From assembly GCA_964634945.1 (NCBI GenBank), contig CAZWMG010000008.1:268-64267 (forward strand): a stretch of 64,000 nucleotides of DNA, written 5' to 3'. This DNA comes from an uncultured Planctomycetia bacterium (GTDB lineage: Bacteria; Omnitrophota; Gorgyraeia; JABMRG01). The notes beneath the pieces were generated by a model. That model was not told where the DNA came from. It did no database searches and worked only from the letters and a program-made list of their open reading frames with translations. Position numbers and translations under genes: made by a program. Position 1 is the stretch's first letter. Every line of letters begins with the position of its first letter. Below, in pieces: positions 721-19,067 of the stretch.

Positions 721-740
721 CTGAAAAAGGGGTGATTAAA

Positions 741-2039
741 ATGAGAAAACTTATATTAATCTTACTATTGGCTATGGCCTGCGGGTTTTTAACTGTGCCG
801 GTATTTGCTAACAACGTGGCTGTTTCCGGTGTCAGCCTGCAAAATAAGGATTTAGGCGAAGGTACAATAGAGGTGAAGTTTACCTTAACCCAGGACAATA
901 CCTTTTCAGGCACAGACGACAACAGCGCGGCTTTTTATGACCGTATCTGGGTGTTCGTCAAATACTGGGTAGTAGGTTCAGACTCTGAAACAACCGGCTG
1001 GCACCACGCTACCTTGACTACAGGCGGCGCTGTTACGCCCACTTCTGACGGCATGGGCGCGTTCAGCTCAACAGGCGCGGACCAGGTTATCAAATGGTCA
1101 TATGTCACTGACAGTGTGGACCCTCAGAATACGGTAAAGGTTAAGGTCTGTGCTGTTGAAATGGTTTATATCCCCGCAGGTTCGTTTGTGTATAATTTAG
1201 CGGGCATAGGCGGTTCTACCTTTAATAACTACGGCGCAGGGTCACAGGTAACAGTTACCTCTGCCTCTGATATCCCCACAGGCGCCGCCGCAGGCTGGCC
1301 CAATGGTTATTCCGCGTTTTACATCGCCAAATATGAGGTCTCGCAAGGCCAGTACGCGGATTACCTTAATATGCTTTCAGCCTCAGATGCCGGCTCAAGA
1401 TATACAGATAATTACGACAGTTCCAGGCAGTCAGTCTCTTATACTTCAGGCAATGATTATGGCTCAAGGTACTCAGCAGGCAGGCCTGCCAGGGGCCAAA
1501 ATTACCTATCCTGGGATGACTGCAGGGCATATGCATCCTGGTGCGGGTTAAGGCCTTTAACAGAGATGGAGTTTGAAAAGGCAGGCAGAGGCGGCAGTAC
1601 AAGCAGTACCAATGTTTATCCATGGGGAGAGACCGCCCCCTCTTCTACTACTTATACGTTTGATGAGGCGACAATCAGCCAGTACTACGCCTGTTATAAT
1701 AATACATCAGCAGGCCCTACTGATGTGGGCCATTACCTGTCAGGTGATATAACCCGCACAGACGCCCAGGCAGGAGCCTCGGTTTATGGCGTTACAGACT
1801 TAAGCGGAAGCCTCTGGGAGCACCTGATAAACTGTGAGCATTTATCAGTGCCCTCTGATGGAAATGGTACCCTTACCTGGCCTATAAGTTGGCCGGACGC
1901 GGCATCAGGTAAGGGCATCCGCGGTGGTAGCTGGTACAGCGTTGCTACGCACTTGCGCGTGTCGGGCCGTGGCGGCGCTGGCAGCGCGTACGCGACTCGG
2001 AGCCACCATTTTGGGTTCCGCCCGGCCAGGACTCCTTGA
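741..2039 (+). CDS. DGR target protein 1: secreted protein with a C-terminal FGE-sulfatase/C-type-lectin-fold domain that carries the variable repeat
   Basis: Signal peptide MRKLILILLLAMACGFLTVPVFA, with an ATG at 741 behind the RBS-like aaaaagggg; the ORF track uses an upstream GTG at 732. FGE-family motifs are present: VEMVYIPAGSF, YIAKYEVSQGQY, RLPTEMEFEKAGRGG, YPWGE, GSLWEH, RGGSWYS and FGFRP. The last 126 nt are the variable repeat. Confidence 0.85.
   Translation: MRKLILILLLAMACGFLTVPVFANNVAVSGVSLQNKDLGEGTIEVKFTLTQDNTFSGTDDNSAAFYDRIWVFVKYWVVGSDSETTGWHHATLTTGGAVTPTSDGMGAFSSTGADQVIKWSYVTDSVDPQNTVKVKVCAVEMVYIPAGSFVYNLAGIGGSTFNNYGAGSQVTVTSASDIPTGAAAGWPNGYSAFYIAKYEVSQGQYADYLNMLSASDAGSRYTDNYDSSRQSVSYTSGNDYGSRYSAGRPARGQNYLSWDDCRAYASWCGLRPLTEMEFEKAGRGGSTSSTNVYPWGETAPSSTTYTFDEATISQYYACYNNTSAGPTDVGHYLSGDITRTDAQAGASVYGVTDLSGSLWEHLINCEHLSVPSDGNGTLTWPISWPDAASGKGIRGGSWYSVATHLRVSGRGGAGSAYATRSHHFGFRPARTP
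1913..2038 (+). repeat. DGR variable repeat VR1 (126 bp, ends at the target stop codon)
   Basis: Identical to VR2 at 5951-6076. Aligns without gaps to the TR at 6666-6791, with 16 mismatches at TR adenines and one non-A mismatch at the 3' end. Confidence 0.85.
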
Positions 2040-4286: not shown

Positions 4287-4338
4287 TCCATAGTCCATAG
4301 TTGACGGTCAATAGTTGATAAGAACAGGAGAAAAGAAG

Positions 4339-4689: not shown

Positions 4690-4760
4690 TTTTTAGTTCA
4701 TAGGCTGTTGACTATCGACTATTGACTATCGACTTTGGACTAAAAAAGGAGGCAACCAAA

Positions 4761-6077
4761 ATGAGAAAACTTATTCGTATCTTGCTATTGACTATTGCCA
4801 TACTATGGACTGTTGACTATGGACTATCGACTGCAATAGCAAACGCCAACAACATAAGCGTGAGTAATACGGTGTTGCAGAACCAGGATGTGGAAAACTC
4901 TACTGTAGAGGTGAAATTTGACATTACATGGCAAAACTCTTTTTCCGATACAGACGGTAACGGCGCGGATTTTTATGACAGGGCATGGATATTTGTTAAA
5001 TACTGGGTGGTGGACGTGGACTCTGAAACAACCGGTTGGCACCACGCTACCTTGACTACAGGCGGCGCTGTTACGCCCACTTCTGATGGAAAAGGGGCAT
5101 TTGTTAATATCGGCGAAGACCAAACCGTAAAATGGAACTACGGCGCGGATGATATAACAGTTTCATCTAATGTAAGGGTGCGTCTTGATGCTGTTGAAAT
5201 GGTTTATATCCCCGCAGGTTCGTTTGTGTATAATTTAGCGGGCATAGGCGGTTCTACCTTTAATAACTACGGCGCAGGGTCACAGGTAACAGTTACCTCT
5301 GCCTCTGATATCCCCACAGGCGCCGCCGCAGGCTGGCCCAATGGTTATTCCGCGTTTTACATCGCCAAATATGAGGTCTCGCAAGGCCAGTACGCGGATT
5401 ACCTTAATATGCTTTCAGCCTCAGATGCCGGCTCAAGATATACAGATAATTACGACAGTTCCAGGCAGTCAGTCTCTTATACTTCAGGCAATGATTATGG
5501 CTCAAGGTACTCAGCAGGCAGGCCTGCCAGGGGCCAAAATTACCTATCCTGGGATGACTGCAGGGCATATGCATCCTGGTGCGGGTTAAGGCCTTTAACA
5601 GAGATGGAGTTTGAAAAGGCAGGCAGAGGCGGCAGTACAAGCAGTACCAATGTTTATCCATGGGGAGAGACCGCCCCCTCTTCTACTACTTATACGTTTG
5701 ATGAGGCGACAATCAGCCAGTACTACGCCTGTTATAATAATACATCAGCAGGCCCTACTGATGTGGGCCATTACCTGTCAGGTGATATAACCCGCACAGA
5801 CGCCCAGGCAGGAGCCTCGGTTTATGGCGTTACAGACTTAAGCGGAAGCCTCTGGGAGCACCTGATAAACTGTGAGCATTTATCAGTGCCCTCTGATGGA
5901 AATGGTACCCTTACCTGGCCTATAAGTTGGCCGGACGCGGCATCAGGTAAGGGCATCCGCGGTGGTAGCTGGTACAGCGTTGCTACGCACTTGCGCGTGT
6001 CGGGCCGTGGCGGCGCTGGCAGCGCGTACGCGACTCGGAGCCACCATTTTGGGTTCCGCCCGGCCAGGACTCCTTGA
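4761..6077 (+). CDS. DGR target protein 2: paralog of target 1 with a divergent N-terminal third and an identical FGE/C-type-lectin-fold C-terminus carrying the VR
   Basis: ATG at 4761 behind the RBS aaaggagg, followed by signal peptide MRKLIRILLLTIAILW. Nucleotides 5189-6115 appear identical to 1151-2077, and the last 126 nt are the VR. Confidence 0.85.
   Translation: MRKLIRILLLTIAILWTVDYGLSTAIANANNISVSNTVLQNQDVENSTVEVKFDITWQNSFSDTDGNGADFYDRAWIFVKYWVVDVDSETTGWHHATLTTGGAVTPTSDGKGAFVNIGEDQTVKWNYGADDITVSSNVRVRLDAVEMVYIPAGSFVYNLAGIGGSTFNNYGAGSQVTVTSASDIPTGAAAGWPNGYSAFYIAKYEVSQGQYADYLNMLSASDAGSRYTDNYDSSRQSVSYTSGNDYGSRYSAGRPARGQNYLSWDDCRAYASWCGLRPLTEMEFEKAGRGGSTSSTNVYPWGETAPSSTTYTFDEATISQYYACYNNTSAGPTDVGHYLSGDITRTDAQAGASVYGVTDLSGSLWEHLINCEHLSVPSDGNGTLTWPISWPDAASGKGIRGGSWYSVATHLRVSGRGGAGSAYATRSHHFGFRPARTP
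5951..6076 (+). repeat. DGR variable repeat VR2
   Basis: gggcatccgcggtggtagctggTacaGcgTtgctacgCac... compared with the TR shows substitutions (capitals) only where the TR has A, apart from a G/C difference in ccagGact versus ccagCact. Confidence 0.85.
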
Positions 6078-6126
6078 TGAGTTACACTTTGTTCTTTGAA
6101 TTTTTTACGCTTTGGAAAAAGCTCGT

Positions 6127-6474
6127 ATGAGTCAGACAACGCCTATAGTAAGTAAGACCTATGATTTTATTCTTTGGGTTTTACCGAAATTGGCAAAATT
6201 TCCCAAAGACCAAAGGTTCTTGCTGGGAGACAGGATTGAAACAACGTTGCTTGATTGTCTGGAGCTTTTGATTGAAGCAGTATATTCTAAGGAAAAAAGG
6301 AAGGTGTTAAGAGATGTTAACCTTAAACTTGAAAAATTACGGTTTTTATGGCGAATCAGCCGCGATATGCGCTATACCCCTCTCAGAAGCTATGAGTTTG
6401 GCGCGAGAAGTATTAATGAGATTGGTAAAATGGCAGGCGGTTGGATTAAGAGTGAATTACGCCGGAGTCTCTGA
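6127..6474 (+). CDS. avd: DGR accessory variability determinant (Avd), a basic four-helix-bundle protein
   Basis: It occupies the canonical position between target/VR and TR. The motif KTYDFILWVLPKLAKFPKDQRFLLGDRIETTLLDCLELLIEA matches the Avd family, and the protein is small and basic. The ATG at 6127 is preferred over the TTG at 6112 used by the ORF track. Confidence 0.75.
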   Translation: MSQTTPIVSKTYDFILWVLPKLAKFPKDQRFLLGDRIETTLLDCLELLIEAVYSKEKRKVLRDVNLKLEKLRFLWRISRDMRYTPLRSYEFGARSINEIGKMAGGWIKSELRRSL

Positions 6475-6665: not shown

Positions 6666-6791
6666 GGGCATCCGCGGTGGTAGCTGGAACAACGATGCTA
6701 CGAACTTGCGCGTGTCGGACCGTAACAACGCTGGCAACACGAACACGAATCGGAACAACAATTATGGGTTCCGCCCGGCCAGCACTCCTTG
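6666..6791 (+). repeat. DGR template repeat TR (non-coding, rich in AAC codons)
   Basis: 126 bp collinear with both VRs. The sequence aac aac gat gct acg aac ... aac aac gct ggc aac acg aac acg aat cgg aac aac aat tat is adenine-rich exactly at the positions where the VRs vary. The overlapping ORF 6314-6901 is therefore spurious. Confidence 0.85.
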
Positions 6792-6913
6792 TCAAGAGCG
6801 GGAAACAACGTTGTCATTCTGAGCCCGTAAGGCCGAAGAATCTAAATACTGGATTCTTTACTTCGTTCAGAATGACAAGGGAAAAAGCGCTCAGAATGTG
6901 ACAAGAAGATAAA

Positions 6914-7957
6914 ATGAAAACTTACAAGCATTTATTTGAAAAGATTACGAGTTTTGAAAACTTACTGCGCGCCGCAAAACAGGCGCAGAAGGGCAAGAAG
7001 ATGAAACACAATGTTAGTGAGTTCAACTTTGGATTAGAAAGCGAAATCCTAAAATTGCAGGATGAGCTTAAGAACCAGGCCTACAGGCCCGGCCGATATA
7101 GGCATTTTTATGTTAATGACCCTAAGCGCAGGCTAATTTCTGCCGCGCCTTACAGAGACAGGGTCGTGCATCATGCCTTTTGTAATACTATAGAGCCGTT
7201 ATTTGACAGGACTTTTATATTTGACTCTTACGCTTGCCGTGTTGGAAAAGGAACGCATAAAGCTATGAGCAGGTGTCAGGAATTTATAAAGAAAAACAAA
7301 TATGTTTTACAGTGTGATATAAGCAAATACTTTTCATCTATTAACCATGGGGTTTTACTTTCTATTCTTTCCCGAAAGATTAGGGATAAAAAAGTGATGT
7401 GGCTGGCAGAGCTTATTATTAATTCAGCATTAACTGTTAATGGCTTAACAGGCATTCCTATAGGTAACCTGACAAGCCAGTTTTTTGCTAATCTTTATCT
7501 TAATGAGCTGGACTATTTTGTGAAGTTTGACTTAGGTGATAAGTGTTATCTTCGCTATATGGATGATTTCCTGATATTTAGCGAAAATAAACAGCATTTA
7601 CATCAAGCTAAAGAAAAAATTAACCAATTCTTAGAAAGCTTTTTAAAGCTTAATTTGCACCCCAAAAAATCATCGGTATTACCCATAAACTTGGGTGTAG
7701 ATTTCTGTGGTTTCCGGATTTTTAAATATTTACGTAAATTGCGAAAAAGCAATATAATGTTTTTTAAAAAAAGAGCCGTAAAGATGCAGAGAGATTTTTG
7801 CAGGCAGAAAATTAATATAAATAAAATTTCTCAATCTATAAGGGCTTGGGTCGCCCACGCTAACTGGGGAAATACTTATAGGTTGCGCGAAAAAGTAATG
7901 GAGAATTTAATTTTTAGCAGAAGTTATATGAGTACAGAAGATCGGTCTAACAGGTAA
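6914..7957 (+). CDS. DGR reverse transcriptase
   Basis: RT motifs are present in order. The DGR-specific IGNLTSQFFANLYLNELD (I/LGxxxSQ) stands in place of the group II intron QGxxxSP, and the catalytic motif is YMDDFLIF. The gene lies directly downstream of the TR. Confidence 0.9.
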   Translation: MKTYKHLFEKITSFENLLRAAKQAQKGKKMKHNVSEFNFGLESEILKLQDELKNQAYRPGRYRHFYVNDPKRRLISAAPYRDRVVHHAFCNTIEPLFDRTFIFDSYACRVGKGTHKAMSRCQEFIKKNKYVLQCDISKYFSSINHGVLLSILSRKIRDKKVMWLAELIINSALTVNGLTGIPIGNLTSQFFANLYLNELDYFVKFDLGDKCYLRYMDDFLIFSENKQHLHQAKEKINQFLESFLKLNLHPKKSSVLPINLGVDFCGFRIFKYLRKLRKSNIMFFKKRAVKMQRDFCRQKININKISQSIRAWVAHANWGNTYRLREKVMENLIFSRSYMSTEDRSNR

Positions 7958-8003
7958 ACCGGCTAACAGGTTAACCGGCTAACCAGTAGATGAGAGGTTA
8001 AAA

Positions 8004-11000
8004 ATGAATAAGCGACTGATAATAACAGTGATTTTGACAGTAGGAGTAGCCATTACAGGTATCTGGCTTGCCTTTGCGGATCAGTATACAGGCGGCGCAG
8101 GTGATGGCTGGAGTTATTCCCAGTCTCAAGATCTTCAAATGACAGGGCCTGATGTTATTTTTACTTCAGCCGAGGGCAGTGTTGGCCGTTTGGGCCAGGT
8201 GCCTTCAGGTTATTTTATTTCCGATGTTTTGGATACCAATGGCAATTCTACTTTAGGCGTCTTAAGCTGGATAGCGGATTTATCCGCGGGCGGTGAGATA
8301 AAGTTCCGAATAGCGGGCAGTGACGACAACATCACCTGGACCGATTATTTAGGCCCGGACGGCACAGCCGGAACTTATTTTACCTCTTCAGGGGAATCTA
8401 TCCCATCCGCGTTAGATGCTAAGCGTTATTTAAGATACAAGGCCTATCTTACAACAGCAGATTACACGCCTGTTTTAGACAGCGTAAGCATACAGTTTGC
8501 GGATGATAATGAAGCAAAAAGAATAATAAGTGATACCTCTGATAATAATTTTACTATCCAGACAGCCTCTATTGTTACTGCCGATGTTGAGCCTGTAAGC
8601 CTTGTAGCCGGCGTAACAGGAACTGTGGTTGTCTCGTTTACTTCTATTAACCCTATCCCCGCGGATGGCAGCATAGAGGTAACATTCCCAGTAGAATTTG
8701 ACGTAAGCGCGGTAGGAGATACCGCTTCATCATCAACAATGGACGGCTCATTAACAGTAACCGTATCAGGACAGGTGATAACTATTACCCGCAGCGGCGG
8801 TAGTGAGCAGCCGGTTGCATCAGAAAGTTTAACCTTAACCAACATTAAGAATTCCAATACTTCCGGCATAACAGGGACATACCAAATAAAGACTATTCGT
8901 TCTGACGGAAACATTATTGATGAAAAAACAGATGTTTCAGCGTCAACTATTGTATCAGCAGCTACAGCAAGTGTAACGCTTAATGCTCCTGATGATATTA
9001 CAGCAGGAGGAGCAAGAGCGGCCTATACTGTCACTCGTTATGATGAGTTTAGTAATTTAAATGATCAGGGAGCTGAGACATTCTATCTATATACTACATC
9101 ACAAGGACAGAATGTTGGGTTCTATGATGTTGTTTCCGGAGGAAGCGCGGTTACAAGCATAGATGTTGCTGATGGCACATCAGAATCTGATTTCTGGTAT
9201 TATGATGAGTTGATGGGTACATTTACTAATACTATTTCAGAGATCAATTCCGGCGCTGTATATGATGTAGGAGATAGTAGTAGTACAGATTTTGGAGATG
9301 GCACAGCATCTGGTATTGCGGTTTCAGGCTCAGGTTCTAGTGCTGAATTGGCCCTTTTAGCGAAGAACCGTTGTGGGGTGGTTTATGCAACAGATGGAAT
9401 ATATGATACCCCAGGAACTGCTAGAGGCGTTTATGTTTCCGGAAACTACGCTTATGTGGCTGATGATACGAGTGGCTTAAAAATTATTAATATCTCTAAT
9501 CCAGATTTGCCAACTCTAACTGGGACGTATGGTACTGTTGGTAATGCTCGTGGTGTTTACGTCTCCGGCGACTACGCTTATGTTACTAATCAGATTGCCC
9601 TTGAAATTATTGACATCTCCACCCCCTCTTCACCAACCTTGACTGGGAGATACGACACGTCCGGTATGCCAGTAAATGTTCATGTTCTTGGTGATTATGC
9701 CTATGTAGCTGACTGGGGTAGTGGACTTCAAATTGTTGATATCTCTACACCTTCTTCACCAAGTTTGGCAGGAACATGTGATAGTACTCGTGCAGCAGAT
9801 GTCTGTACCTCCGGTAACTATGCTTATGTTGCAGACGATACAAGCGGACTTCAAATTATAGATATTTCAAATCCTGCTTTACCTACCATTGTAGGAACTT
9901 ATGATACTGCTAATAAGGCAACTTGTGTTTATGTTTCCGGAAACTACGCTTATGTGGGTGATTATCAAGATGACTTGGTAGTTATTGACATCTCTAATCC
10001 TTCTTTGCCAAGCCTAGTCGCAACTGTTAATACTACCGGTGAGCCTAACAGCCTATATATTTCAGGTGATTATCTCTATGTTTCCGATTATTATAGAGAT
10101 GTAAAAATAGTAGATATTTCAACCCCATCTTCTCCTTTTGTAGCTACATTAGTAAAAACTGATTCAAATTATCCCCGAGGTGTTTTCGTTGCTAATGATT
10201 ATGTCTATGTAGCTGATGGTACAAGTGGTTTGCGCATCAAGGATATGACAGATTTGACGCCACCTTCTATCATTACATCTTATGATACTTCCAGTAATGC
10301 CTGGGACGTATGTGCTCTAGGTGATTATGTCTATGTAGCGGATGCGGGACATGGCCTGAAAATTATTGATATCTCTACACCTTCTTCACCAGTTTTAACT
10401 GGAACATATGATACGTCTAGTGACGCCCATGGTGTTTATGTTTTATCCGATTATGCCTATGTAGCGGATGGTTCAAATGGCCTCCAAATCATAGATGTTT
10501 CCAGCCCAGCATCGCCAACAAGGACTGGGACCTGTGATACTCCCGGTGACGCACAAAAGGTCTATCTATCTGGCAACTACGCCTATGTTGCTGATGGTTA
10601 TAGTGGTTTACAGGTGATTGATATTTCTGATTTGTCGTCGCCAACCCTAACTGGAACATATGATACTCCTGGTTTTGCCAGAGATGTTTATGTTTTAGGT
10701 GATTACGCTTACGTGGCCGATAATAGCTCTAGTGGTTTACAGATTGTTGATATTACTGATCCATCTTTGCCGAGTGCTGTTGGGTCGTATAATATTAATG
10801 ATGAGGCCCACGGTGTTTATGCCTCCGGCAATTATGCTTATGTAGTTTTTAATGGCGCAGGTTTGCATATTATCGATGTTTCCACGCCTTCTTTGCCGAC
10901 ATTAACTGGAGCGTACGATACTTCTGGCTATGGCAGAGGCGTTTATGTCTCTGGTAACAATGCTTATGTGGCAGATGATGCAAACGGTTTACAGATTATC

Positions 11001-14000
11001 GATATCTCTAACCCAGCCTTACCAGTCTTGGTGGGCATTACGGAAACTCCGGGTAGTGCCAGGGCAGTTTATATTTACGGTATTTATGCCTACGTTGCTG
11101 ATTGGAATTTTGGAATTGTCATTACTGATATTTCAGGCTATTCTTCTTCCGGCACATTTGCATCACGTATCATGGATAGCGCATCAAATGAAACATTTAG
11201 CACTGCTTCCTGGAATGGCGTTGTTCCAGCTGATACTACCTTGACTATCAAGGCCCGCACTTCTGATGATTCAGCAATGAGCGGAGCAACTGATTGGGCG
11301 AGCTGTTCAGAGCTTACAAGTGGTCAGGATATATCAGATGCAACCGGAGTAACAGACACAGATAGGTATATTCAATACTATATTGAGATGGCAACGAGTG
11401 ATGTAACAGCTACCCCGTCTCTAAGTGATATTGCATTTGATTATAGCCGCTCAGCTACAGGTGGTATCTATGATACAGATAGTCTAAATGTTAAACATGC
11501 TGCTTCGAATAAGATAGCATTTACAACAGATATCACAACTCCTCAGAAAGCAGGCGCTGTATTTACTCTGCCGGCTATCAAGGCATTGGATACATATGGT
11601 AATTTATTAAATAATGACTATGGCGCCTCTGCCTATGCAGAGACTATCACAATCAGTTACGCGCTAAGTGGCGCCTCTGATGCCCCGGATGATAATGGAA
11701 CAGACTCGTTTACTACCAATGTAGCCTTTGCCAATGGTGCGTCCACCACCTCTTTAAGTACTATTCTATACAGGGCGCAGGATACAACCGTAACTCCTTC
11801 AACAGAAGCTGCGGGATTAACGGGCCAGACAACAGAGTCTAATTCTATAACAGTAAATCCTGAAACAAAGAACAAGGTAGTATTTACGCAAGAGCCGTCC
11901 GCGACAGGAAAGATAAATTATCCATTGGATACACAGCCTATAGTTGTGATACAGGATGTTTATGGTAACCAGACAGCTGATACAGACGCGATAACTCTGT
12001 ATGACTCGAGTTCAAATGAGGTATATATGGATGCAAGCGGTACATTGTCAGCAGCATCCAATCCTTTATCAGCTACTGATGGACAAGCGGAATTCAGCAA
12101 CCTGGAATACAGTTTGCCAGGTTCTATATATCTGTATGCCGAAACCGCAGGTATTGACGCGGACTTTTCACAGCAGATAGCGCTATCAGTATCATCAACT
12201 TCTACGGTTGATGCGGCGGCAACGCCAGCGCCTGATTTTGATCTTGTACCGACTAATGATGATATAGACCATAGCTTTACTGTATTGAAGTTTAAGATTA
12301 CAGACGCGGGAGTAGATGATACCCCAACCTTGATAGACAGGATAAAGGTAGCCATATCAGGCACAGGCGCAAGCGCCGCTACTGACATAACCTGGGCAGG
12401 CCTGTATATAGGCGAGACCCAAATCACCACTGTTACAGGTGAGGCTATAGCAAATGATTATATAACATTCGGCACTCTTCCGGATGGCGATTCTAACGCT
12501 GACCTTTACAGCTTAGCTGATAACACATCCGAAGAATTTACAGTTTATATTTATATGAAAGACGGAAAACTTACAGCAACAGAGGATGATACATATATCT
12601 TTGATGTTGATGAGACATTGATAGGAGTAGATAGCGGGTTATCGTCTCAAATGGCATCCGATTCCGCAAGCGTAACTCCGGTTACAGGGACCATAGATGT
12701 TACAATCTCTTATATAGAGGCTGTAACGGCTGCCGGAAATGAAGATGTTGAATTAACAGCAGGTATTGGTAATGATATAAAGCTTCGCGGTGTTGATGTT
12801 AATAAGAACGTAGATGAGGATTATATAGGTAACCAGACATTTAAGTTCTCAGGCCTGAACCAGATAGGAGTCTATAAACCTAAGACAGACGCTACTGTAT
12901 TTGGAAACAACAAGACCATTAGTTTTACAGCAGGTGTCTCAGCGACAACGACTCTTACTGCTTACGCAAAAGAGACAGGTACTCTATCAGCCCAGGACCA
13001 GAATCACCTATCTTATGAAACATACGCGCTAAATGTTACTACTGTAGCTGCACAGGGTGATAGTATAGTTCTTACAAGCGGTAACAACCAGTCCGGCGCG
13101 ATAAACGCGGTATTATCACAGGAGTTTATAGCTACTGTATCTGATGCTTATGCAAACCCTGCCACGGGTGAGGTTGTTGAATTTGCGGTAGATACAGCCC
13201 CTAATGGAGCAAGCGGCCAGAGCCTGAGCCAGCCGCAGGATGACACTGACGATGACGGCTTGGCATCTGTTCTCTTTACTCTGGGCAATGTAGCGGGAGA
13301 CTATTTGATTACCGCAACTTGCGGTAGCATAACAGGGTCTCCATTGACTTATACCGCGACAGCTTTAGAGCCTACAGGACTAAATATAGCAAGCGGCAAT
13401 AATCAGGTTGACAAAAAGGTTGCAGAGGATCTTAATCCTTTTGTTGTGGAACATACAGCCTCCGGCGATATACCTGTTCCTAACGTGGATATTGATTTTG
13501 AGATTATAAGTTTTCCTGATGGGGCTACCGGACAGTCATTGTCAGCGTCAAGCGCTACAACCAATTCAAATGGCCAGGCGACGGCCACCCTTACCCTTGG
13601 CACGAAGATAGGCAGTTATGTTGTGCGCGCTAGTGTTGGAGCGTTTAGTGTTGATTTCACAGCGACCGCTCTTCCTGAGACGCCTAATAAAATAATACTT
13701 TCAGGCCCTAGTTCCGTAGCGGCAGGAGGCGTATCAGAAAGCTTTTCAATATATATAAAGGATACATATGATAATTTAAGCGGCGTAACAAGCGCCACCA
13801 CAATTGGTGCGTCGAGTAGCGCAAGCGCTACATCAAGCTTTTATAGCGACTCGCTCGGTGAAAGCCTTCTCGTAGATGATAGTATATTGTTAAGCATTGA
13901 TACCCATAGCGCTACTTTCTATTACAAGGACACGCTGGTTGGCGTTCCGACAGTTACGGTATCTGTAACGAGCGGACAGGCAGGACTGAATACCGATAAT

Positions 14001-17000
14001 AATAATTCCGGTATCAGTGTTATACCGGGTGGCATACATAGCTTTAAGGTTACAGGTTCAACATCGGCTATGGTTGTCGGAGGAAGCCGTGAGATTACCG
14101 TAACAGCGTATGATGTCCATGATAACGTAAAGACCAATTATAATGGTGATATAAATGTAATATTCTCAGGCGTTGCAGTCTCTCCATCTGCTCAAGCTCC
14201 AACATGTTCTGATAAGGATTCAAATGATATAGCTGTTGGCAGTTCAACTACACTTACATTCTCATCAGGCGTTGCCACAACCACTCTAAAGCCTTATAAG
14301 GCAGAGGAAGTTGCAATAAAGGCTACAGCAGGTGCTGTTACAACAGCTTCTGATAGTGACCTTGAATTTGTTGTGCGCCACGGCGCGCACGACCACCTAA
14401 AATTCGCCGCTAATCTGCCTACTCCGCAGATAGCAGGTAGTGAATTTACATTAGAGACCACCATTGATGTTGTTGATATCTATGCAAATGTATGCGATGG
14501 CGCGAATGGCGCCACTGCATATGCTCAGACAGACAAGACTGTCACATGGACTCTAAGCGGCGAAGCTAACGGCCCCTTAAGCGGAACAGATACATTTACA
14601 AATCCTATTTCATTTAGCGCTGGGCATTCAGTGAATACCTTAATCGCTACTTTATACCGCGCTCAGAATACTACAATAACTCCAAGTGTTGTTGGTCTAA
14701 GCGGAACTAATGAGGCATCCAATACAGTAGTTGTTGCAGGAGGAGAGGTTAATAAGATCCGATATACGCAGCAGCCTTCAGCTACATGTATTACTACTCA
14801 AGCCCTGGCTCAACAGCCGCATGTAGCAATATCTGATGCGTATGGTAATGATGTAATATCAGCAGAAGGAAATATCTCTTTGGCAGCATCAACAACAACC
14901 GGCACATTTACACCTGTTGCAAACGGCACCTTAAGTGCCGCGTCATTGAGTTTAGCGCTGTCATCAGGCGCGGCGGACTTTAGCGAAGTAACCTATAACT
15001 ATCCTGAGAATATCTATATAAGAGCCTCAATATCCGGATATGAGCTGAATAATATCTATTCTTCATTAATAGCCTTCTCAACCGCTGATGAGGCTACTAT
15101 ATCAGCAGGGGCACTATCAGAGCCTTCATCTATCTCATCCTTGTCTGATAACGTGCTTGAGTTAACAGACGTCTTTGATTTTAAGGTTACTGACGGCGGG
15201 ACAGATGGGTATGCTACAAAGGTAAAACAGATAGTTATTACTCAGTCGGCGAATAACACAGCTGAAAGCTGGACAGACTATATCCAGGGCGCGTATATAA
15301 CAGACGGCACAACACAGATATTAGCTATTGTTGAAGAGACAATGCTTGTATTTGGAAGTGGATCAAGTATTATTTATTCTATAAGCAATGGCAGTCATAA
15401 GACATTTACATTGAAGGTATATCTAAAACCCACATTGCCGGCAGGAGCTGATGGCAAGGTAATCGGTTTTAGCGTTGATGCCGATACTTATATAGTTTTA
15501 CATAATTTGAGCTCGCAATTCCCTACAACCTCACCTCTTAGCACAGAGCCTGAGGTAGCTGTTGTGGCTACTAATTTTACGGTTACAGGTGACGCTACAA
15601 TGCTTGCGGGGACTTCAAATACGCTTACCCTGACAGCCGTAGATGCTAATGGCAACAAGGATAAGGATTATACGGGTGATAAGGCATTAGTCTTTAGCGG
15701 AGCTAATGTGTCAACAAATGGAAATAACCCTACGTGCACTTCATTTAGCGGTGCGGATATTGATTTTGCTGACAATACGATAATTACGTTTGTCGATGGA
15801 GTTAACTCATCGACTATTACCATGAAGCTTTATAAAGCAGAAACAGTTTCTGTAAGAGCAGGAGACGGGACACTGGTTACCGCATTAGCTGACGCTCTTC
15901 AGGTTACGGTTTCAGGTGGTACAGCATCAGACCTTCTATGGGGTACCGAACCCGGAACAGTCGCCGTGGCCAATGCGCCATGGAAGGAATTTACTGTAAA
16001 TGTCACTGATGCTTATGGTAATATCGCCTCAAGTGACGCTGATGTGACTATCAGTGCATCGGGTGGGACATTGGCGGATTCTGCTACAGCAGTAGTTGCC
16101 GCGTCATCAGGTGTCGCGACCTTCAGGAATTTTGCTGTTACATGTTCAAGCTATCCAGGTATAGTAGAGATTACAGGCGAATCAGACGGGGTAACGCCAA
16201 CACCGGCATCTAGTTCTGTAACTGTCGCGGAGAAATATTCAGTAACAGTCAATGTCAATGATTATACGAGTGGTGCAGCCCTTACGGAGCTTGCGTTTGA
16301 TCTTCTCTCAGACGCTGGTGTTACAATGTCTAGTGAAGGATTCCCAATGACCGGAAACAGCCCGTTTGAGTTTGAGTTGCCTTATGGCACATATACATTG
16401 TCATTCGAAAAAGAACAATATATGGCACACAGCACAGAGAAGATAGCTGGAGTGGCTGCCGATGCACTCGATGGAACATATGATAACGATATAAGCTGGA
16501 CAGTTATAGTATCATCCTTAGCAGAGGCTACGGCAGATTATAATGTAAAGAGCGGTATTACCTATGATGAGACTACCGATAGGCTTACTCTGCGTCTCTG
16601 GATTGAAAAGCGCGGCAAGATGATACTTAATGATGACGTAAATAAGCTGGGCCCTGCTACTATTGAAATTTATGACGATGCGACTTCTCAATGGCTAAGC
16701 GCTATAAGCCTTACACCGCCTAGCTTAACGAATACGACATCAGGCCTATATTACAAAGTTGTCAGTAACGTTAGCAGTGGAGGCACACCGGCACTAGTCG
16801 AGGGAAAGACATACTTTGCCAGTTGTAAGATAAATTATGGCGGCCTTGACGGAACAGGCAGGCTTTATGAGGGCGGCACGACATTTGCTCTTACTGTAAG
16901 CCAGAGTCTAAAGGCCGTAACTGAAGGCATTGAAATCATGACCGATGATATCAAGGCTGAGGTAACAGGGGTTACGCAATCAGTATCTGATCAGGCTGCC

Positions 17001-18107
17001 GCTACCCAGGCAGTTATTGTTGCCCAAACCGCTTCTACGCAATCAGCCATTGCAACGGGCACCGCCGCTACCCAGGCCGCTGTAGCAACAGGCACCGCCG
17101 CTACCCAGGCCGCTGTAGCAACAGGCACAGCCGCTACCCAGGCCGCTGTAGCATCCGGCACCGCCGCTAACCAGACCGCTATAACTACCATAGGTTCTAA
17201 TCTGGCTTCAAGCGTTGCCGCGACAGAAGAGGTATTAGCGGCGAGGTCAAAGTTAGAGGGCGCTTCAAGCATATTAAATCGGCAGAGCGCTATTCGTAAC
17301 AACGACACTATGGTTATAAGATACCAGACAAATACAGGGCTCGCCCCTGTAATAAGCGTATATGATCCGACCCATGATGAACGGATAGAGAGCGAGCTGA
17401 TGACAGAGACGATACCCGGAATTTCAGGGGTATATGAATACGAGGTTAAATTTATATGGGGGCTTGGTGAACATACTGTTGTCTGCAAAGAAGAGACCAC
17501 AGGCACCCTTGACGGTATGAATGTACAGGTTATCTCAACAGACTTAGAGGATATCTCAGGCTCGCTAACTACTGCTACAGCTACCTTGCAAGGTATCGAT
17601 ACAGATGAATTAGGAGGATTAAGCGTGAGGGTAGCGGATATTAATACATACGTCAGTCAGATGGTCAGTACCATTGACAAACTTTCCGCGTTAAAAGAGA
17701 AGACAACAGACCTGGCGACAGATGCTAGTGATGTTATCTATAAGCAGTTAGAGGTTGCAACGCAGAAGCTCAAAGAGATAAATGAGGGCCAGGGCATCAA
17801 GATAGAAAAGATGTATGACCTTAGTGAAGAACAGTCTGTGGATACAGATTACATCAAGAATAAGGCACTAGAGATCAAGGCATTAGTTGAACTTAGCCAG
17901 GATATCTTAGAAAAGACAGATGATACGCCTATTATGAAGAGCTGGTTAGAATCAGACGATGAATACGCATACCAAGGTGAAGAAGAATATGAAGAACAGG
18001 ACCATACATTAGAACAGGATCAAGAACAGGATCTGGAAGAGGCCCCGGCGCAGGATCAAGAACAGGATCTGGAAGAGGCCCCGGCGCAGGATCAAGAACA
18101 GGAGTAA
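8004..18107 (+). CDS. Giant secreted or cell-surface protein (3367 aa) with an LVIVD beta-propeller repeat region, many Ig-like domains and a C-terminal coiled-coil/acidic tail
   Basis: Signal peptide MNKRLIITVILTVGVAITGIWLAFADQYTGGAGDGW. About 15 tandem LVIVD-type repeats (YAYVADDTSGLQIIDIS.P..P...GTYDT.G.A.GVYVSG.) span nt ~9380-11150. Long Thr/Ser/Ala-rich beta-domain repeats follow. A coding 33-bp tandem (TGTAATQAAVA x4) lies at ~17020-17185, followed by a coiled-coil segment and a C-terminal 36-bp x2 repeat encoding QDQEQDLEEAPA. Confidence 0.85.
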   Translation: MNKRLIITVILTVGVAITGIWLAFADQYTGGAGDGWSYSQSQDLQMTGPDVIFTSAEGSVGRLGQVPSGYFISDVLDTNGNSTLGVLSWIADLSAGGEIKFRIAGSDDNITWTDYLGPDGTAGTYFTSSGESIPSALDAKRYLRYKAYLTTADYTPVLDSVSIQFADDNEAKRIISDTSDNNFTIQTASIVTADVEPVSLVAGVTGTVVVSFTSINPIPADGSIEVTFPVEFDVSAVGDTASSSTMDGSLTVTVSGQVITITRSGGSEQPVASESLTLTNIKNSNTSGITGTYQIKTIRSDGNIIDEKTDVSASTIVSAATASVTLNAPDDITAGGARAAYTVTRYDEFSNLNDQGAETFYLYTTSQGQNVGFYDVVSGGSAVTSIDVADGTSESDFWYYDELMGTFTNTISEINSGAVYDVGDSSSTDFGDGTASGIAVSGSGSSAELALLAKNRCGVVYATDGIYDTPGTARGVYVSGNYAYVADDTSGLKIINISNPDLPTLTGTYGTVGNARGVYVSGDYAYVTNQIALEIIDISTPSSPTLTGRYDTSGMPVNVHVLGDYAYVADWGSGLQIVDISTPSSPSLAGTCDSTRAADVCTSGNYAYVADDTSGLQIIDISNPALPTIVGTYDTANKATCVYVSGNYAYVGDYQDDLVVIDISNPSLPSLVATVNTTGEPNSLYISGDYLYVSDYYRDVKIVDISTPSSPFVATLVKTDSNYPRGVFVANDYVYVADGTSGLRIKDMTDLTPPSIITSYDTSSNAWDVCALGDYVYVADAGHGLKIIDISTPSSPVLTGTYDTSSDAHGVYVLSDYAYVADGSNGLQIIDVSSPASPTRTGTCDTPGDAQKVYLSGNYAYVADGYSGLQVIDISDLSSPTLTGTYDTPGFARDVYVLGDYAYVADNSSSGLQIVDITDPSLPSAVGSYNINDEAHGVYASGNYAYVVFNGAGLHIIDVSTPSLPTLTGAYDTSGYGRGVYVSGNNAYVADDANGLQIIDISNPALPVLVGITETPGSARAVYIYGIYAYVADWNFGIVITDISGYSSSGTFASRIMDSASNETFSTASWNGVVPADTTLTIKARTSDDSAMSGATDWASCSELTSGQDISDATGVTDTDRYIQYYIEMATSDVTATPSLSDIAFDYSRSATGGIYDTDSLNVKHAASNKIAFTTDITTPQKAGAVFTLPAIKALDTYGNLLNNDYGASAYAETITISYALSGASDAPDDNGTDSFTTNVAFANGASTTSLSTILYRAQDTTVTPSTEAAGLTGQTTESNSITVNPETKNKVVFTQEPSATGKINYPLDTQPIVVIQDVYGNQTADTDAITLYDSSSNEVYMDASGTLSAASNPLSATDGQAEFSNLEYSLPGSIYLYAETAGIDADFSQQIALSVSSTSTVDAAATPAPDFDLVPTNDDIDHSFTVLKFKITDAGVDDTPTLIDRIKVAISGTGASAATDITWAGLYIGETQITTVTGEAIANDYITFGTLPDGDSNADLYSLADNTSEEFTVYIYMKDGKLTATEDDTYIFDVDETLIGVDSGLSSQMASDSASVTPVTGTIDVTISYIEAVTAAGNEDVELTAGIGNDIKLRGVDVNKNVDEDYIGNQTFKFSGLNQIGVYKPKTDATVFGNNKTISFTAGVSATTTLTAYAKETGTLSAQDQNHLSYETYALNVTTVAAQGDSIVLTSGNNQSGAINAVLSQEFIATVSDAYANPATGEVVEFAVDTAPNGASGQSLSQPQDDTDDDGLASVLFTLGNVAGDYLITATCGSITGSPLTYTATALEPTGLNIASGNNQVDKKVAEDLNPFVVEHTASGDIPVPNVDIDFEIISFPDGATGQSLSASSATTNSNGQATATLTLGTKIGSYVVRASVGAFSVDFTATALPETPNKIILSGPSSVAAGGVSESFSIYIKDTYDNLSGVTSATTIGASSSASATSSFYSDSLGESLLVDDSILLSIDTHSATFYYKDTLVGVPTVTVSVTSGQAGLNTDNNNSGISVIPGGIHSFKVTGSTSAMVVGGSREITVTAYDVHDNVKTNYNGDINVIFSGVAVSPSAQAPTCSDKDSNDIAVGSSTTLTFSSGVATTTLKPYKAEEVAIKATAGAVTTASDSDLEFVVRHGAHDHLKFAANLPTPQIAGSEFTLETTIDVVDIYANVCDGANGATAYAQTDKTVTWTLSGEANGPLSGTDTFTNPISFSAGHSVNTLIATLYRAQNTTITPSVVGLSGTNEASNTVVVAGGEVNKIRYTQQPSATCITTQALAQQPHVAISDAYGNDVISAEGNISLAASTTTGTFTPVANGTLSAASLSLALSSGAADFSEVTYNYPENIYIRASISGYELNNIYSSLIAFSTADEATISAGALSEPSSISSLSDNVLELTDVFDFKVTDGGTDGYATKVKQIVITQSANNTAESWTDYIQGAYITDGTTQILAIVEETMLVFGSGSSIIYSISNGSHKTFTLKVYLKPTLPAGADGKVIGFSVDADTYIVLHNLSSQFPTTSPLSTEPEVAVVATNFTVTGDATMLAGTSNTLTLTAVDANGNKDKDYTGDKALVFSGANVSTNGNNPTCTSFSGADIDFADNTIITFVDGVNSSTITMKLYKAETVSVRAGDGTLVTALADALQVTVSGGTASDLLWGTEPGTVAVANAPWKEFTVNVTDAYGNIASSDADVTISASGGTLADSATAVVAASSGVATFRNFAVTCSSYPGIVEITGESDGVTPTPASSSVTVAEKYSVTVNVNDYTSGAALTELAFDLLSDAGVTMSSEGFPMTGNSPFEFELPYGTYTLSFEKEQYMAHSTEKIAGVAADALDGTYDNDISWTVIVSSLAEATADYNVKSGITYDETTDRLTLRLWIEKRGKMILNDDVNKLGPATIEIYDDATSQWLSAISLTPPSLTNTTSGLYYKVVSNVSSGGTPALVEGKTYFASCKINYGGLDGTGRLYEGGTTFALTVSQSLKAVTEGIEIMTDDIKAEVTGVTQSVSDQAAATQAVIVAQTASTQSAIATGTAATQAAVATGTAATQAAVATGTAATQAAVASGTAANQTAITTIGSNLASSVAATEEVLAARSKLEGASSILNRQSAIRNNDTMVIRYQTNTGLAPVISVYDPTHDERIESELMTETIPGISGVYEYEVKFIWGLGEHTVVCKEETTGTLDGMNVQVISTDLEDISGSLTTATATLQGIDTDELGGLSVRVADINTYVSQMVSTIDKLSALKEKTTDLATDASDVIYKQLEVATQKLKEINEGQGIKIEKMYDLSEEQSVDTDYIKNKALEIKALVELSQDILEKTDDTPIMKSWLESDDEYAYQGEEEYEEQDHTLEQDQEQDLEEAPAQDQEQDLEEAPAQDQEQE

Positions 18108-18204
18108 TGAACAAGTGCAAAGTGCAAGGCAGATTCTTAAGTTTACATTTCGGGCATTACCTACCTGTCGGTAAGTAAGCACCATTTTGTAAATTTAAGA
18201 ATAT

Positions 18205-18235
18205 TTGCACATTTACCCTTAAAATAATATATAAT
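18205..18235 (+). promoter_or_regulatory. Candidate sigma70-like promoter (TTGCAC-N17-TATATAAT) upstream of the 18259 gene
   Basis: Hexamers read directly from the sequence; no other support. Confidence 0.3.
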
Positions 18236-18258
18236 AAGTAAAGACCAGGGGGGTCGAT

Positions 18259-18999
18259 ATGAAAAAAAGATGGATATTAACAGCTTTAATGGTAATTATA
18301 TTTTCATTCTTAGCGCAGGAGGCGGAATGCGGCATTACCTTAAAGGCCTTGGTGGTAAATCCTTCCAAGACAAAGACGCAGACAGCCCAACTTAAGGCCT
18401 ATCTGCCAAAAGAGGCATCTGCGGACGATGTTATCGATTTGGGGGATTTAAAGATAGACTATGATATTGAGAAAGGCCTTTATTTTGTGCATCAGAAATA
18501 CAAGCTTAAACCGGGAGAGAGTATAAGCCGTGAGATAGAGATAAAAGATGTATGGGTGATATCAAAGGCAGAAATAGATGATCTTACCCGCCAGGCAGCG
18601 GATCTAGCCGAAAGGCTTAAAGGTACAGCCTATTTTAATATGGCGGTTACGTTGCAAAAAGATATTGAAAGCAAGGCGGAAGAGATTATGAATAGGCAGG
18701 AAAAGGCCTTAAATGCCAATCCCCGTGCGCATATAGGCGCCTATAGAAGCAATATGAATACGCTTGATGAGACTACGGCCTCTCTGGCAAAATTAGAGAA
18801 GATGGTCGAAGAGCTGCAGGAAGATAAAGGTTCAGGCTCAGAAAAGATTCACGTTAAGGCCACATGGCGGCTCATTGTAGCCATGGTTGTTGCGTTAGGC
18901 GTTCTCTCATTTATATTCTTTGTCATATGGAATCGTCAGGCTGCGGTAGAAGGAGCCAAGCGCAAAGCTGAGCAAGGTGATAAGAAAATTAGCTTCTAA
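18259..18999 (+). CDS. Hypothetical membrane-anchored protein with an N-terminal signal/TM segment, a coiled-coil middle and a C-terminal TM helix
   Basis: MKKRWILTALMVIIFSFLA at the N-terminus and LIVAMVVALGVLSFIFFVIW near the C-terminus. No recognisable catalytic motifs. Confidence 0.55.
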   Translation: MKKRWILTALMVIIFSFLAQEAECGITLKALVVNPSKTKTQTAQLKAYLPKEASADDVIDLGDLKIDYDIEKGLYFVHQKYKLKPGESISREIEIKDVWVISKAEIDDLTRQAADLAERLKGTAYFNMAVTLQKDIESKAEEIMNRQEKALNANPRAHIGAYRSNMNTLDETTASLAKLEKMVEELQEDKGSGSEKIHVKATWRLIVAMVVALGVLSFIFFVIWNRQAAVEGAKRKAEQGDKKISF

Positions 19000-19067
19000 C
19001 TTTACAAAATAGTGCAATACTCAAAATGTAAAGTTAGCGCTTAACTTTACAAATAGGAAAATAGTGC
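18996..19067. repeat. REP-like palindromic element plus a partial second copy, overlapping the stop codon of the upstream gene
   Basis: ctaactttacaaaatagtgcaatactcaaaatgtaaagttag has 11-bp arms (ctaactttaca / tgtaaagttag). Near-identical copies occur at 40119-40162 and 40583-40626. Confidence 0.7.

Follow-up and report, generated by a model that had tools for sequence, protein, structure and literature searches.

The window, i.e., the whole stretch of 64,000 nucleotides analysed, contained a DGR cassette, a gene for a giant protein and a small ORF, all located on the same strand (Table 1). The sequence-only reading had placed the giant gene directly behind the DGR reverse transcriptase (RT) and had described it as a single ORF of 3,367 aa bearing a signal peptide; both observations held, and an identical protein was already listed among the called gene products of the public protein library (P0026, 3,367 aa).

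Table 1. Coordinates of the features of the locus in the window (position 1 is the first nucleotide of the window).
Feature	Position	Strand	Remarks
Further X-protein, 3' part	1..720	+	Clipped by window edge; end ...YIGGTGDGWDSFESESF; homologous to P0004
DGR target 1, FGE-sulfatase/CLec fold	732..2039	+	VR1 at 1913-2038
X-protein, 713 aa	2145..4286	+	Leader and N-terminal tag as in giant; tag again at C-terminus
DGR target 2, FGE-sulfatase/CLec fold	4722..6077	+	VR2 at 5951-6076
bAvd accessory protein	6112..6474	+	
DGR template repeat (TR)	6666..6791	+	
DGR reverse transcriptase	6914..7957	+	46 nt upstream of giant gene
Giant ORF, 3,367 aa	8004..18107	+	Including stop codon; no internal stop
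Sec-type signal peptide, aa 1-26	8004..8081	+	Predicted cleavage between AFA and DQ; read from sequence
Mature N-terminal tag DQYTGGAGDGWSYSQSQDL (Y-x-GG-x-GDGW)	8082..8138	+	Family D11 of sequence comparison
Beta-sandwich module 1, LGPDGT...RYLRYK...TP-L type	8151..8513	+	Without Pfam match
About three head Ig-like domains, aa 171-460	8514..9383	+	Kept in orthologs
14 LVIVD repeats, aa 469-1051	9408..11156	+	PF08309, TIGR04312, direct count
Beta-sandwich module 2, GTFASRIMD...RYIQYY	11157..11483	+	Kept after head swap
Super-repeat A, aa 1163-1723, ~4.5 Ig-like beta-sandwich domains	11490..13172	+	Self-comparison, AF2 model
Big_1/invasin-like Ig domains	13029..14390	+	Big_1 54 bits, Invasin_D3 28 bits
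Super-repeat B, aa 2124-2678, paralog of A	14373..16037	+	Fragment-based self-comparison
Family-defining C-terminal module, aa 2790-3316	16371..17951	+	KLKEINEGQGIKIE...DYIKNKALEIKALVELSQ...W; 324 representatives
33-nt x3.9 tandem repeat (ATGTAATQAAV) within long helix	17052..17180	+	
Acidic tail, 51 aa, net charge -23, 36-nt x2.5 tandem repeat	17952..18104	+	Lineage-specific extension
Conserved small partner	18259..18999	+	Directly downstream of giant gene

Contigs of the Logan collection, obtained independently from other runs, matched positions 6086-9950 and 18074-19025 of the window with 100% identity, and support for the gene interior (9950-18074) came from colinear orthologs rather than from reads. 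An assembly chimera, or an LVIVD block with a wrong number of repeats, might be suspected from this lack of independent contig coverage and from the fact that the short-read contigs of the other runs end within the LVIVD block. However, these breaks coincided with the sole exact 31-mer repeat of the block, whose repeats were on average only 42% identical at the amino acid level; an independent assembly (L002) reproduced the junction between the N-terminus and the LVIVD block, together with the first five repeats, at 100% identity, and orthologs were colinear with the region behind the block for >2,200 aa. We consider an assembly error of this kind scarcely credible. No match was obtained in the Rfam scan of the region.

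The DGR of the window is active in nature and its lectin-fold targets are diversified in the sampled population: VR1 from another sample displayed 23 differences with respect to the window, all of them (23/23) at TR adenines. The giant itself is not a DGR target protein. The absence of VR-like matches, previously judged by eye, was corroborated by searching the TR against both strands of the giant gene, where the best match at non-A positions (44%) was close to the values for shuffled sequences (39-43%), in contrast with 99% for the true VRs. Cryptic VRs in the giant were therefore rejected, and the ortholog at locus L008 likewise contained no VR when compared with its own TR.

The leader of the giant consisted of MNKR, a 20-residue hydrophobic core and the cleavage site, and it was the only hydrophobic 19-mer of the protein. 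An AxA site immediately preceded the Y-x-GG-x-GDGW tag in all orthologs. This tag defined a subfamily of giants and was found also as the C-terminal end of proteins encoded just upstream of DGR targets. The leader was indeed common to the giant and to the repeat protein located between the two DGR targets, as had been proposed, with 84% identity between the two copies (2135-2252 vs. 7994-8111). The giant was acidic and Thr/Ser-rich over its whole length, Thr plus Ser accounting for 23% of its residues.

Domain annotation with PF08309 and Big models detected both LVIVD and Ig-like domains. In the head, beta-sandwich module 1 had homologues in P0004, P0006 and the CPR pilin-like proteins P0009 and P0011, and the Ig-like domains that followed were 52-70% identical to those of P0001, P0002 and the L009 ortholog. 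PF08309 matched the giant with 529 bits (cutoff 20.2; E 4e-163) in 14 stretches, and direct counting also gave 14 units with a period of 41-43 aa (aa ~469-1051); the repeats were thus of the LVIVD type, as first noticed, whereas the earlier count of about 15 has to be lowered to 14. The choice-of-anchor B model TIGR04312 scored 105.1 (cutoff 100) through six stretches, each of them a partial match to the 364-position model. The block would correspond to two 7-bladed propellers.

Beta-sandwich module 2 was 73% identical to its counterpart in the L009 ortholog, where it lies directly behind a Kelch block. At this one fixed junction, LVIVD repeats were found in the window, Kelch repeats in L009, the closest ortholog, and nothing in L008, with identities of 70-73% on both flanks. 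Among the representatives of the giant family, LVIVD matches occurred in the window protein only. The LVIVD block is an exchangeable head specific to this lineage. It is not what defines the giant, which is characterised by its conserved C-terminal core together with a small membrane partner.

Behind the head, the AF2 model of aa 1163-1723 (pLDDT 88.5) was an all-beta chain of sandwiches, the best fold matches being a titin Ig array, invasin, cadherins and S-layer proteins. Big_1 (PF02369) reached 54 bits in three stretches when aa 1676-2129 were scanned alone (gathering cutoff 34.9) and 34.0 on the whole giant, marginally under the cutoff, whereas the Invasin_D3 match in the segment scan was sub-threshold (28 bits, cutoff 33). 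The Big_1 score, the beta-sandwich model and the Thr plus Ser content bore out the many Thr-rich Ig-like domains of the first description. Sequence searches against the PDB, for which individual segments as well as stalk, C-terminal module and partner profiles served as queries, gave no informative match (all E>0.25).

A domain composition of this kind might also fit a structural part of the envelope (S-layer-like, sheath or spacer) rather than an adhesin. LVIVD repeats were defined in cell-surface proteins of archaea and bacteria (PMC2447325), the fold matches included the S-layer proteins EA1 and 7ptp as well as mastigoneme filaments, and the composition is uniformly acidic and Thr/Ser-rich. 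Against this, the head is swapped or missing in close relatives, as is usual for tips that bind ligands and experience diversifying pressure, but not for proteins that form a lattice; in addition, the gene is single-copy, its products range from 2,000 to 5,700 aa, and hypervariable lectins are linked to it. A purely structural role appears improbable to us.

The conserved core of the window giant (~2,150 aa), which recurs in a few hundred giant proteins, comprised the two super-repeats of ~560 aa, the Big_1 domains and a ~490-aa alpha/beta module. The super-repeat pair was present in about 26 of the closest family members. The C-terminal module was ordered as a beta-sandwich, a long helix, a beta domain and a helical end; helices of 115 and 77 aa were predicted within it, in a model of low confidence (pLDDT 49) which was used for the layout of secondary structure only and was too poor for fold search. 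The C-terminal tail had been described as coiled-coil and acidic. The acidic character was clear, most family members terminating at position 487/488 of the C-terminal profile and the window giant extending 51 aa further, whereas a coiled coil is only plausible since the long helices come from the low-confidence model.

An exhaustive search with the C-terminal profile retrieved 324 cluster representatives at E<=1e-3 (135 at E<=1e-30), mostly of 2,000-5,743 aa and ending in the module. Word-indexed searches gave 1-20 relatives, and rarity of the family was rejected as an artefact of the index. On these profile matches, the module defines a giant-protein family, proposed here as new and unannotated in current domain libraries. 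The window giant possessed both the terminal module and, directly downstream, the small signal-peptide/TM partner that characterise the family, and its nearest named relatives were from Candidatus Omnitrophica/Omnitrophota.

Wherever the region 3' of the giant gene could be inspected, the partner gene came directly after it, with identities of 32-55%; this held also for L014 and L016, which are without a DGR. The product showed a signal peptide, a beta domain of ~75 aa, a helical region, a C-terminal TM helix and a charged tail, and is predicted to be a small bitopic membrane protein. With a signal peptide and a C-terminal TM, its topology suggests an inner-membrane location, which is not easily reconciled with a fibre projecting outward from a diderm cell. 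NCBIfam and Pfam scans of the giant revealed no sorting-signal family (PEP-CTERM, LPXTG, T9SS CTD etc.), and neither an outer-membrane anchor, a known sorting signal nor a hydrophobic C-terminal segment was found on it. Given the pLDDT of 49 for the C-terminal model, the idea of an anchor draws on conservation and synteny.

The giant gene directly followed the DGR RT in all nine tag-type loci (window, L008, L009, L010, L011, L012, L013, L017, and L019), which are independent and shared the order target-Avd-TR-RT-giant-small ORF, whereas neither of the two tag-less loci contained a DGR; within this small sample (9/9 vs. 0/2) the terminal tag predicted DGR linkage perfectly. Identity across the linked loci fell to 46-48% for the RT and to 28-43% for the giant C-terminal module, and the outer flanking genes differed. 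In L010 and L011 the RT stop codon overlapped the giant start codon, thus indicating one transcription unit; the promoter and terminator scan gave results at shuffle level. A Y1-transposase-like gene recurred near three loci; it was rejected as a conserved partner, as its position was variable and the window and L016 copies were 29% identical.

This linkage shows co-inheritance and, likely, co-transcription, as distinct from physical interaction. The nine DGR-linked loci may share one ancestral arrangement, and the adjacency might then be inherited gene order without function, the giant being an ordinary adhesin beside a DGR in one clade: all nine carry the same tag and could belong to a single clade, other family members function without a DGR, and the giant is not targeted by the one it has. 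Nevertheless, the block has remained intact at the low RT and C-terminal module identities given above, while the surrounding genes changed wholly, toxin-antitoxin pairs were inserted, cassettes were duplicated and heads were swapped, and the codon overlap in two loci again argues for one transcription unit. We regard gene order without function as unlikely.

The giant, the DGR-diversified lectin-fold proteins and a T2SS/T4P cluster had been suggested to form a cell-surface interaction module. The adhesin-like giant and its DGR link stood up to the comparison of loci, whereas the T2SS/T4P part did not. The cluster was located 9.6 kb downstream and was separated from the giant gene by an IS200-like gene, genes for a peptidase and a GGDEF regulator, and an ATP synthase operon, and secretion genes were nearby in only one of the 10 other loci (L016, tag-less and non-DGR). 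The T2SS does not belong to the conserved cassette; it is non-contiguous and absent from 9/10 other loci, and its link to the giant is weak. T2SS/T4P genes have been reported near giant genes of Omnitrophota (bioRxiv 10.1101/2023.11.21.568195; 10.64898/2026.06.07.730766), which, with the cluster downstream in the window, could suggest a secreted predatory effector degrading prey cell walls and exported via the nearby T2SS. Such a role seems very improbable: besides the position and rarity of the secretion genes, no catalytic, peptidase or glycoside-hydrolase domain appeared in Pfam/NCBIfam scans, and 3,367 aa is an order of magnitude below the proposed Omnitrophota effector giants.

From its leader, domain types and composition we infer that the giant is exposed at the surface. 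Our preferred reading, to which we assign a probability of about 0.6, is a Sec-exported, envelope-anchored adhesive fibre of an Omnitrophota-type bacterium, co-expressed with DGR-diversified lectins. The protein is built in three tiers: a cleavable leader with the tag immediately behind it; a variable N-terminal head formed by a jelly-roll, about three Ig domains, 14 LVIVD blades and a second jelly-roll; and the conserved core ending in the alpha/beta module. Conservation and synteny suggest that the fibre is anchored at the envelope by its C-terminal module and the small partner, the Ig rod would push the head outward, and the putative propeller head may bind a surface ligand on host, prey or substrate. 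The lectins would be expressed from the giant's transcription unit and act as a co-functioning variable recognition component.

The tag could, speculatively, be a handle joining constant scaffolds to variable lectins. An extension that we put forward only tentatively, and judge to be rather unlikely, is a split display in which the hypervariable lectins, as separate small subunits, dock via their conserved N-terminal domain onto the tags exposed at the N-terminus of the mature giant and at the C-terminal ends of X-proteins. If so, a constant giant stalk would carry a swappable propeller head and an exchangeable, retroelement-diversified tip, DGR variation would be used in a new mode, in trans on a scaffold, and an inroad would be gained to partner recognition by host- or prey-dependent Omnitrophota.

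The Omnitrophota are widespread, mostly uncultured, nano-sized bacteria thought to be dependent on or predatory toward other cells. The locus unites in one conserved block giant surface proteins and DGR hypermutation, previously separate topics; our literature search found no papers linking Omnitrophota with DGRs. A sizeable giant family is newly defined by its C-terminal module, small membrane partner and swappable heads, and these features, together with the tag, provide testable handles on cell-cell recognition.

Among known systems, the giant fibrillar adhesins (invasin/intimin with Big_1 arrays; RTX adhesins such as LapA and MpIBP) resemble the window giant in having a signal-bearing, acidic, Thr/Ser-rich Ig-like rod with a separate ligand-binding region, putative in our case, at one end, and the invasin type in particular shares with it the Big_1 matches and the invasin-like fold match. 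In contrast, the window giant is devoid of beta-barrel, RTX repeats, T1SS genes and known sorting signal; its apparent anchor is the novel ~490-aa module plus the small membrane protein, and its head is N-terminal. No family for the N-terminal beta-barrel or the C-terminal lectin-like tip of invasin/intimin was present in the giant, and no HemolysinCabind or T1SS family was detected in the giant or in the neighbouring ORFs scanned (to ~nt 45,000). The choice-of-anchor B/LVIVD surface proteins (PF08309, TIGR04312) are matched by 14 canonical 42-aa units and a TIGR04312 score above cutoff. Unlike them, the window giant carries its LVIVD block as an interchangeable head cassette in a 3,367-aa fibre and lacks a recognised C-terminal sorting signal.

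With the Omnitrophota giant genes the window giant shares the phylum (judged from relatives), an N-terminal signal, Ig-like and attachment domains, and secretion/pilus genes in the wider neighbourhood. Those genes mostly encode >30,000 aa, with T2SS-like loci upstream and PilZ genes downstream (West-Roberts 2023; 10.1101/2023.11.21.568195), whereas the window protein is ten-fold smaller, has the DGR upstream and the T2SS downstream, and its next regulatory gene is the GGDEF response regulator. DGRs, reverse transcriptases and LVIVD are absent from both papers on these genes (10.1101/2023.11.21.568195; 10.64898/2026.06.07.730766).

The cassette itself agrees with canonical DGRs: its targets carry the VR at the C-terminus, bAvd, TR and RT are all present, and the differences are adenine-specific. 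Canonical cassettes have targets of the C-type-lectin/FGE-sulfatase fold, of the type of Bordetella phage Mtd, Treponema TvpA and Legionella LdtA, and in known DGR systems the protein that is diversified also serves as the receptor-binding protein on display. At the present locus, unlike in canonical DGRs, the conserved parts include a very large non-target gene, its small partner and X-proteins that end in the tag.

The giant gene downstream of the reverse transcriptase (RT) encodes a real, secreted protein with a variable head, a rod predicted to be Ig-like and a conserved tail. It is one open frame of 3,367 codons, and the identical sequence is present as a called protein (P0026) in the public protein library. 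The N-terminus, MNKR followed by a 20-residue hydrophobic core and AFA/DQ, contains the sole hydrophobic 19-mer of the protein and reads as a Sec signal peptide, in agreement with the sequence-only reading of a single ORF with such a signal; the AxA site lies directly ahead of the same following motif in every ortholog. The leader is common to the giant and to the 713-aa protein encoded between the targets of the diversity-generating retroelement (DGR), as had been claimed (84% nucleotide identity over 118 nt).

Fourteen LVIVD stretches were found by Pfam (E 4e-163), and direct counting gave 14 units in unbroken succession, repeating every 41-43 aa (aa ~469-1051), so that the repeats noticed from the sequence stand but their number, put at about 15, does not. 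The block scored above the NCBIfam cutoff for 'choice-of-anchor B'; LVIVD is a 42-aa repeat defined in archaeal and bacterial cell-surface proteins (PMC2447325). The proposed Ig-like domains were recovered as a Big_1 match (54 bits against a gathering score of 34.9, the giant segment being scanned alone) and in an AF2 model of aa 1163-1723 (14-sequence alignment; pLDDT 88.5), which showed ~4.5 beta-sandwich domains in a string. The best Foldseek matches of this part were titin I65-I70, invasin, cadherin ectodomains, macroglobulin domains, mastigoneme filaments and S-layer proteins, with low TM-scores because of inter-domain geometry; these matches consistently indicate an Ig-like rod. Around two thirds of the giant had no sequence match in Pfam, NCBIfam or PDB. 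Thr plus Ser made up 23% of the residues, thus confirming the Thr-rich character, and the protein is strongly acidic (D+E 12%, K+R 4%). The acidic tail was also found (net charge of -23 in the final 51 residues, which include a perfect 36-nt x2.5 repeat), whereas the coiled coil claimed with it appeared only as long helices in a low-confidence model.

Independent contigs from other sequencing runs were 100% identical to window 6086-9950, covering the accessory gene Avd, the template repeat (TR), the RT and, in the giant, the initial 1.9 kb with the junction into the LVIVD block, and further ones were 100% identical to 18074-19025. The former stop at 9458 and 9950, where the LVIVD region has its one exact 31-mer repeat (9429/9927). 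Collapse of the LVIVD repeats by the assembler is unlikely, judging from their sequences, because they average 42% amino acid identity to each other. The interior is supported by ortholog colinearity, the giant from aa 1044 on being colinear with its orthologs (73% over 830 aa in locus L009 and 43% over 2,219 aa in L008).

An exhaustive search of 1.84 billion representatives with a profile built on the C-terminal ~530 aa retrieved 324 proteins at E ≤ 1e-3, of which 135 reached E ≤ 1e-30. Most have 2,000-5,743 aa, the module extending to the end of the protein. Named relatives belong to Candidatus Omnitrophica/Omnitrophota (L008, MNVR01000036.1; P0175), and the window is otherwise chromosomal, with a diderm-like gene content (ATP synthase, GlnRS, thiamine genes, AsmA, T2SS). 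The ~60 residues ahead of the acidic tail were near-invariant among homologs only 44% identical overall. Super-repeats A (aa 1163-1723) and B (aa 2124-2678) recur in ~26 of the closest members, which therefore have a core of ~2,150 aa in common. A small membrane partner is also conserved: the 246-aa ORF comes next after the giant gene wherever a locus shows this region, non-DGR loci included, with 32-55% identity across loci and a layout of signal peptide, small beta domain, helical region, C-terminal transmembrane helix and charged tail. Neither the C-terminal module nor the partner matched a curated family (Pfam/NCBIfam) or a solved structure.

The head behaves as an exchangeable cassette. 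L009, the closest ortholog, was 70% identical to the giant up to the junction TDFGDGTASGI-VSGSGSSAEL and again 73% identical from GTF(A/T)SRIMD on; between them, its gene (L009 8108-14086) carries Kelch repeats (aa ~620-1160; Kelch_6 and Kelch_1 above gathering scores) in place of the LVIVD block of the window. From these alignments the difference is a propeller-for-propeller cassette swap. L008 has neither the propeller nor the flanking jelly-roll. A local LVIVD HMM gave no match in any other of the 150 listed representatives or in the L008, L009 and L017 orthologs, and other heads of the family are beta-helix/NosD/fn3, Kelch/DUF2341 or BNR-type according to precomputed Pfam hits, some of them faint. 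A 706-aa paralog in L009 (P0004) and CPR pilin-like proteins have the first jelly-roll (aa ~50-170) as well; this points to module exchange between paralogs with a common leader. The jelly-roll (LGPDGT...RYLRYK...TP-L-D) has no Pfam match and is also present in P0009, P0011 and many N-termini of the family. In Parcubacteria type-IV-pilin-like proteins it is preceded by F-x-QTDWSGG, and many members of the family that lack the tag start with QTDWSGG.

The cassette upstream of the giant is a canonical DGR. Mismatches between the TR and the variable repeats (VR) sit at TR adenines, except for one C/G near the 3' end. This DGR is active, since a contig from another run differed from window 1151-5066 at 23 positions, all 23 in VR1 and all 23 at TR adenines. 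The giant itself is not diversified: with TR adenines as wildcards, its best match on either strand was 44%, the level of shuffles (39-43%) and far from true VRs (99%), which upheld the earlier impression from inspection; the L008 ortholog likewise had no VR to its own TR. The two target genes were 100% identical over 927 nt (1151-2077 vs 5189-6115), VR1 and VR2 included. This is odd for an active DGR and, given that VR1 differs at 23 TR-adenine sites in another run, probably reflects the assembler threading one copy twice or very recent gene conversion. A 195-aa ORF reaches from the last part of Avd across the entire TR; the TR region is non-coding, and this frame is most likely spurious. Between the 713-aa protein and the second target lies a 23S-rRNA-IVP gene (Avd-like four-helix bundle), flanked in opposite orientation by GACTAT[C/T/G] repeats of 7-nt period (7 matches vs 0.7 expected); IVP-like genes also occur near the giants of L014 and L016.

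Coordinates of the features, in the window unless another locus is named
Feature	Position	Strand
Tag-bearing proteins upstream of DGR targets	1-720; 2145-4286	
Tag copies	667-693; 2226-2252; 4224-4250; 8085-8111	
DGR targets, FGE-sulfatase/CLec fold	732-2039; 4722-6077	
VR1; VR2	1913-2038; 5951-6076	
GACTAT[C/T/G] repeats	4285-4310	-
GACTAT[C/T/G] repeats	4700-4740; 4806-4832	+
23S-rRNA-IVP gene	4315-4689	
bAvd	6112-6474	
195-aa ORF	6314-6901	+
TR	6666-6791	
RT	6914-7957	
Giant gene	8004-18107	+
Jelly-rolls	8151-8513; 11157-11483	
LVIVD block	9408-11156	
Partner	18259-18999	
Y1 transposase domain gene	19068-19988; L016 4989-5996; L019 5829-6590	
Response-regulator-GGDEF gene	21042-22064	
F-type ATP synthase operon	22437-27585	
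T2SS cluster	~27.7-36.1 kb	
HEPN/nucleotidyltransferase pair	L008 5514-6229; L009 7304-8045	
Tandem cassettes	L009 1-8100	

Linkage of this DGR to the giant is conserved in a subfamily marked by a tag, Y-x-GG-x-GDGW-x4-S, which follows the predicted cleavage site directly in the giant and its relatives and recurs near the C-terminus, no more than ~20 residues from the end, in the proteins whose genes immediately precede the DGR targets (both such proteins of the window, and those in L008-L011). All nine independent tag loci (the window, L008, L009, L010, L011, L012, L013, L017 = L018 and L019 = L020) displayed the order (target)-Avd-TR-RT-giant-partner, cut contigs fitting in their visible part. 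This block is kept although RT identity falls to 46-48%, giants range from 2,082 to 5,477 aa, outer flanking genes are mutually unrelated, two loci (L008 and L009) carry a HEPN/nucleotidyltransferase pair between RT and giant, and L009 has two complete cassettes in tandem (VR-Avd-TR-RT twice; RTs ~80-86% identical in nucleotides). The non-variable N-terminal domain of the targets was conserved across loci as much as the lectin scaffold. No RT was found near the two tag-less family members inspected (L014, L016). The block is probably operonic; in L010 and L011 the stop codon of the RT and the start codon of the giant overlap, and in the window the two genes are 46 nt apart, the forward strand between them showing no terminator-like site.

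Two of the nine loci have a variant tag (YTGGSYDGY / FTGGSYDGY). The form [YF]-x-GG-x-GDG-W occurs in two positions only, after the signal-peptide cleavage site or in the last ~20 residues, and at the protein level it brackets the cassette; a second internal copy lies ~165 aa beyond the first in L013 and L019. The tag matches no known family. Each L009 cassette is followed by a protein with leader and tag, P0004 and then the giant, and the toxin-antitoxin-like HEPN/nucleotidyltransferase pair has opposite order in L008 and L009.

A T2SS/T4P cluster (T2SS E, F, G, pseudopilins, J and K with PilM/N/O) exists downstream, as claimed, but it is not part of the conserved block. The IS200-like gene, a peptidase, the GGDEF regulator and the ATP synthase operon lie between it and the giant. 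A functional connection is possible, since published Omnitrophota giant genes lie near T2SS/T4P genes (West-Roberts et al. 2023, 10.1101/2023.11.21.568195; 10.64898/2026.06.07.730766). The distance from the giant to the GGDEF gene downstream is 3 kb, and published giants are followed by PilZ genes (10.1101/2023.11.21.568195), for which reason the locus may have a link to c-di-GMP. The ATP synthase operon has a fused b/delta subunit. An IS200-like Y1 transposase gene, which may have been domesticated or be of the REP-associated kind, adjoins the cassette in three loci at varying positions; that of the window is fused to an HTH and only 29% identical to the L016 copy.

The fibre would be held at the envelope by its conserved tail and the partner, the head would bind a ligand, and the DGR lectins would work together with the fibre. 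The topology of the partner suggests the inner membrane, and the searches brought up neither an outer-membrane anchor nor a known sorting signal. That the tag is a physical docking handle joining scaffolds and lectins seems improbable, if conceivable; the nine tag loci may derive from a single origin.

DGRs, reverse transcriptases and LVIVD go unmentioned in the two Omnitrophota giant-gene papers (10.1101/2023.11.21.568195; 10.64898/2026.06.07.730766), our literature search found no paper combining Omnitrophota with DGRs, and a large DGR survey names Omnitrophica only as part of a PVC group. As far as searched, the C-terminal module that defines the family, together with its partner, the exchange of one propeller cassette for another and the conserved DGR-giant block that correlates with the tag are undescribed; giant surface fibres of Ig-like type are a general class, of which this protein is a new member.
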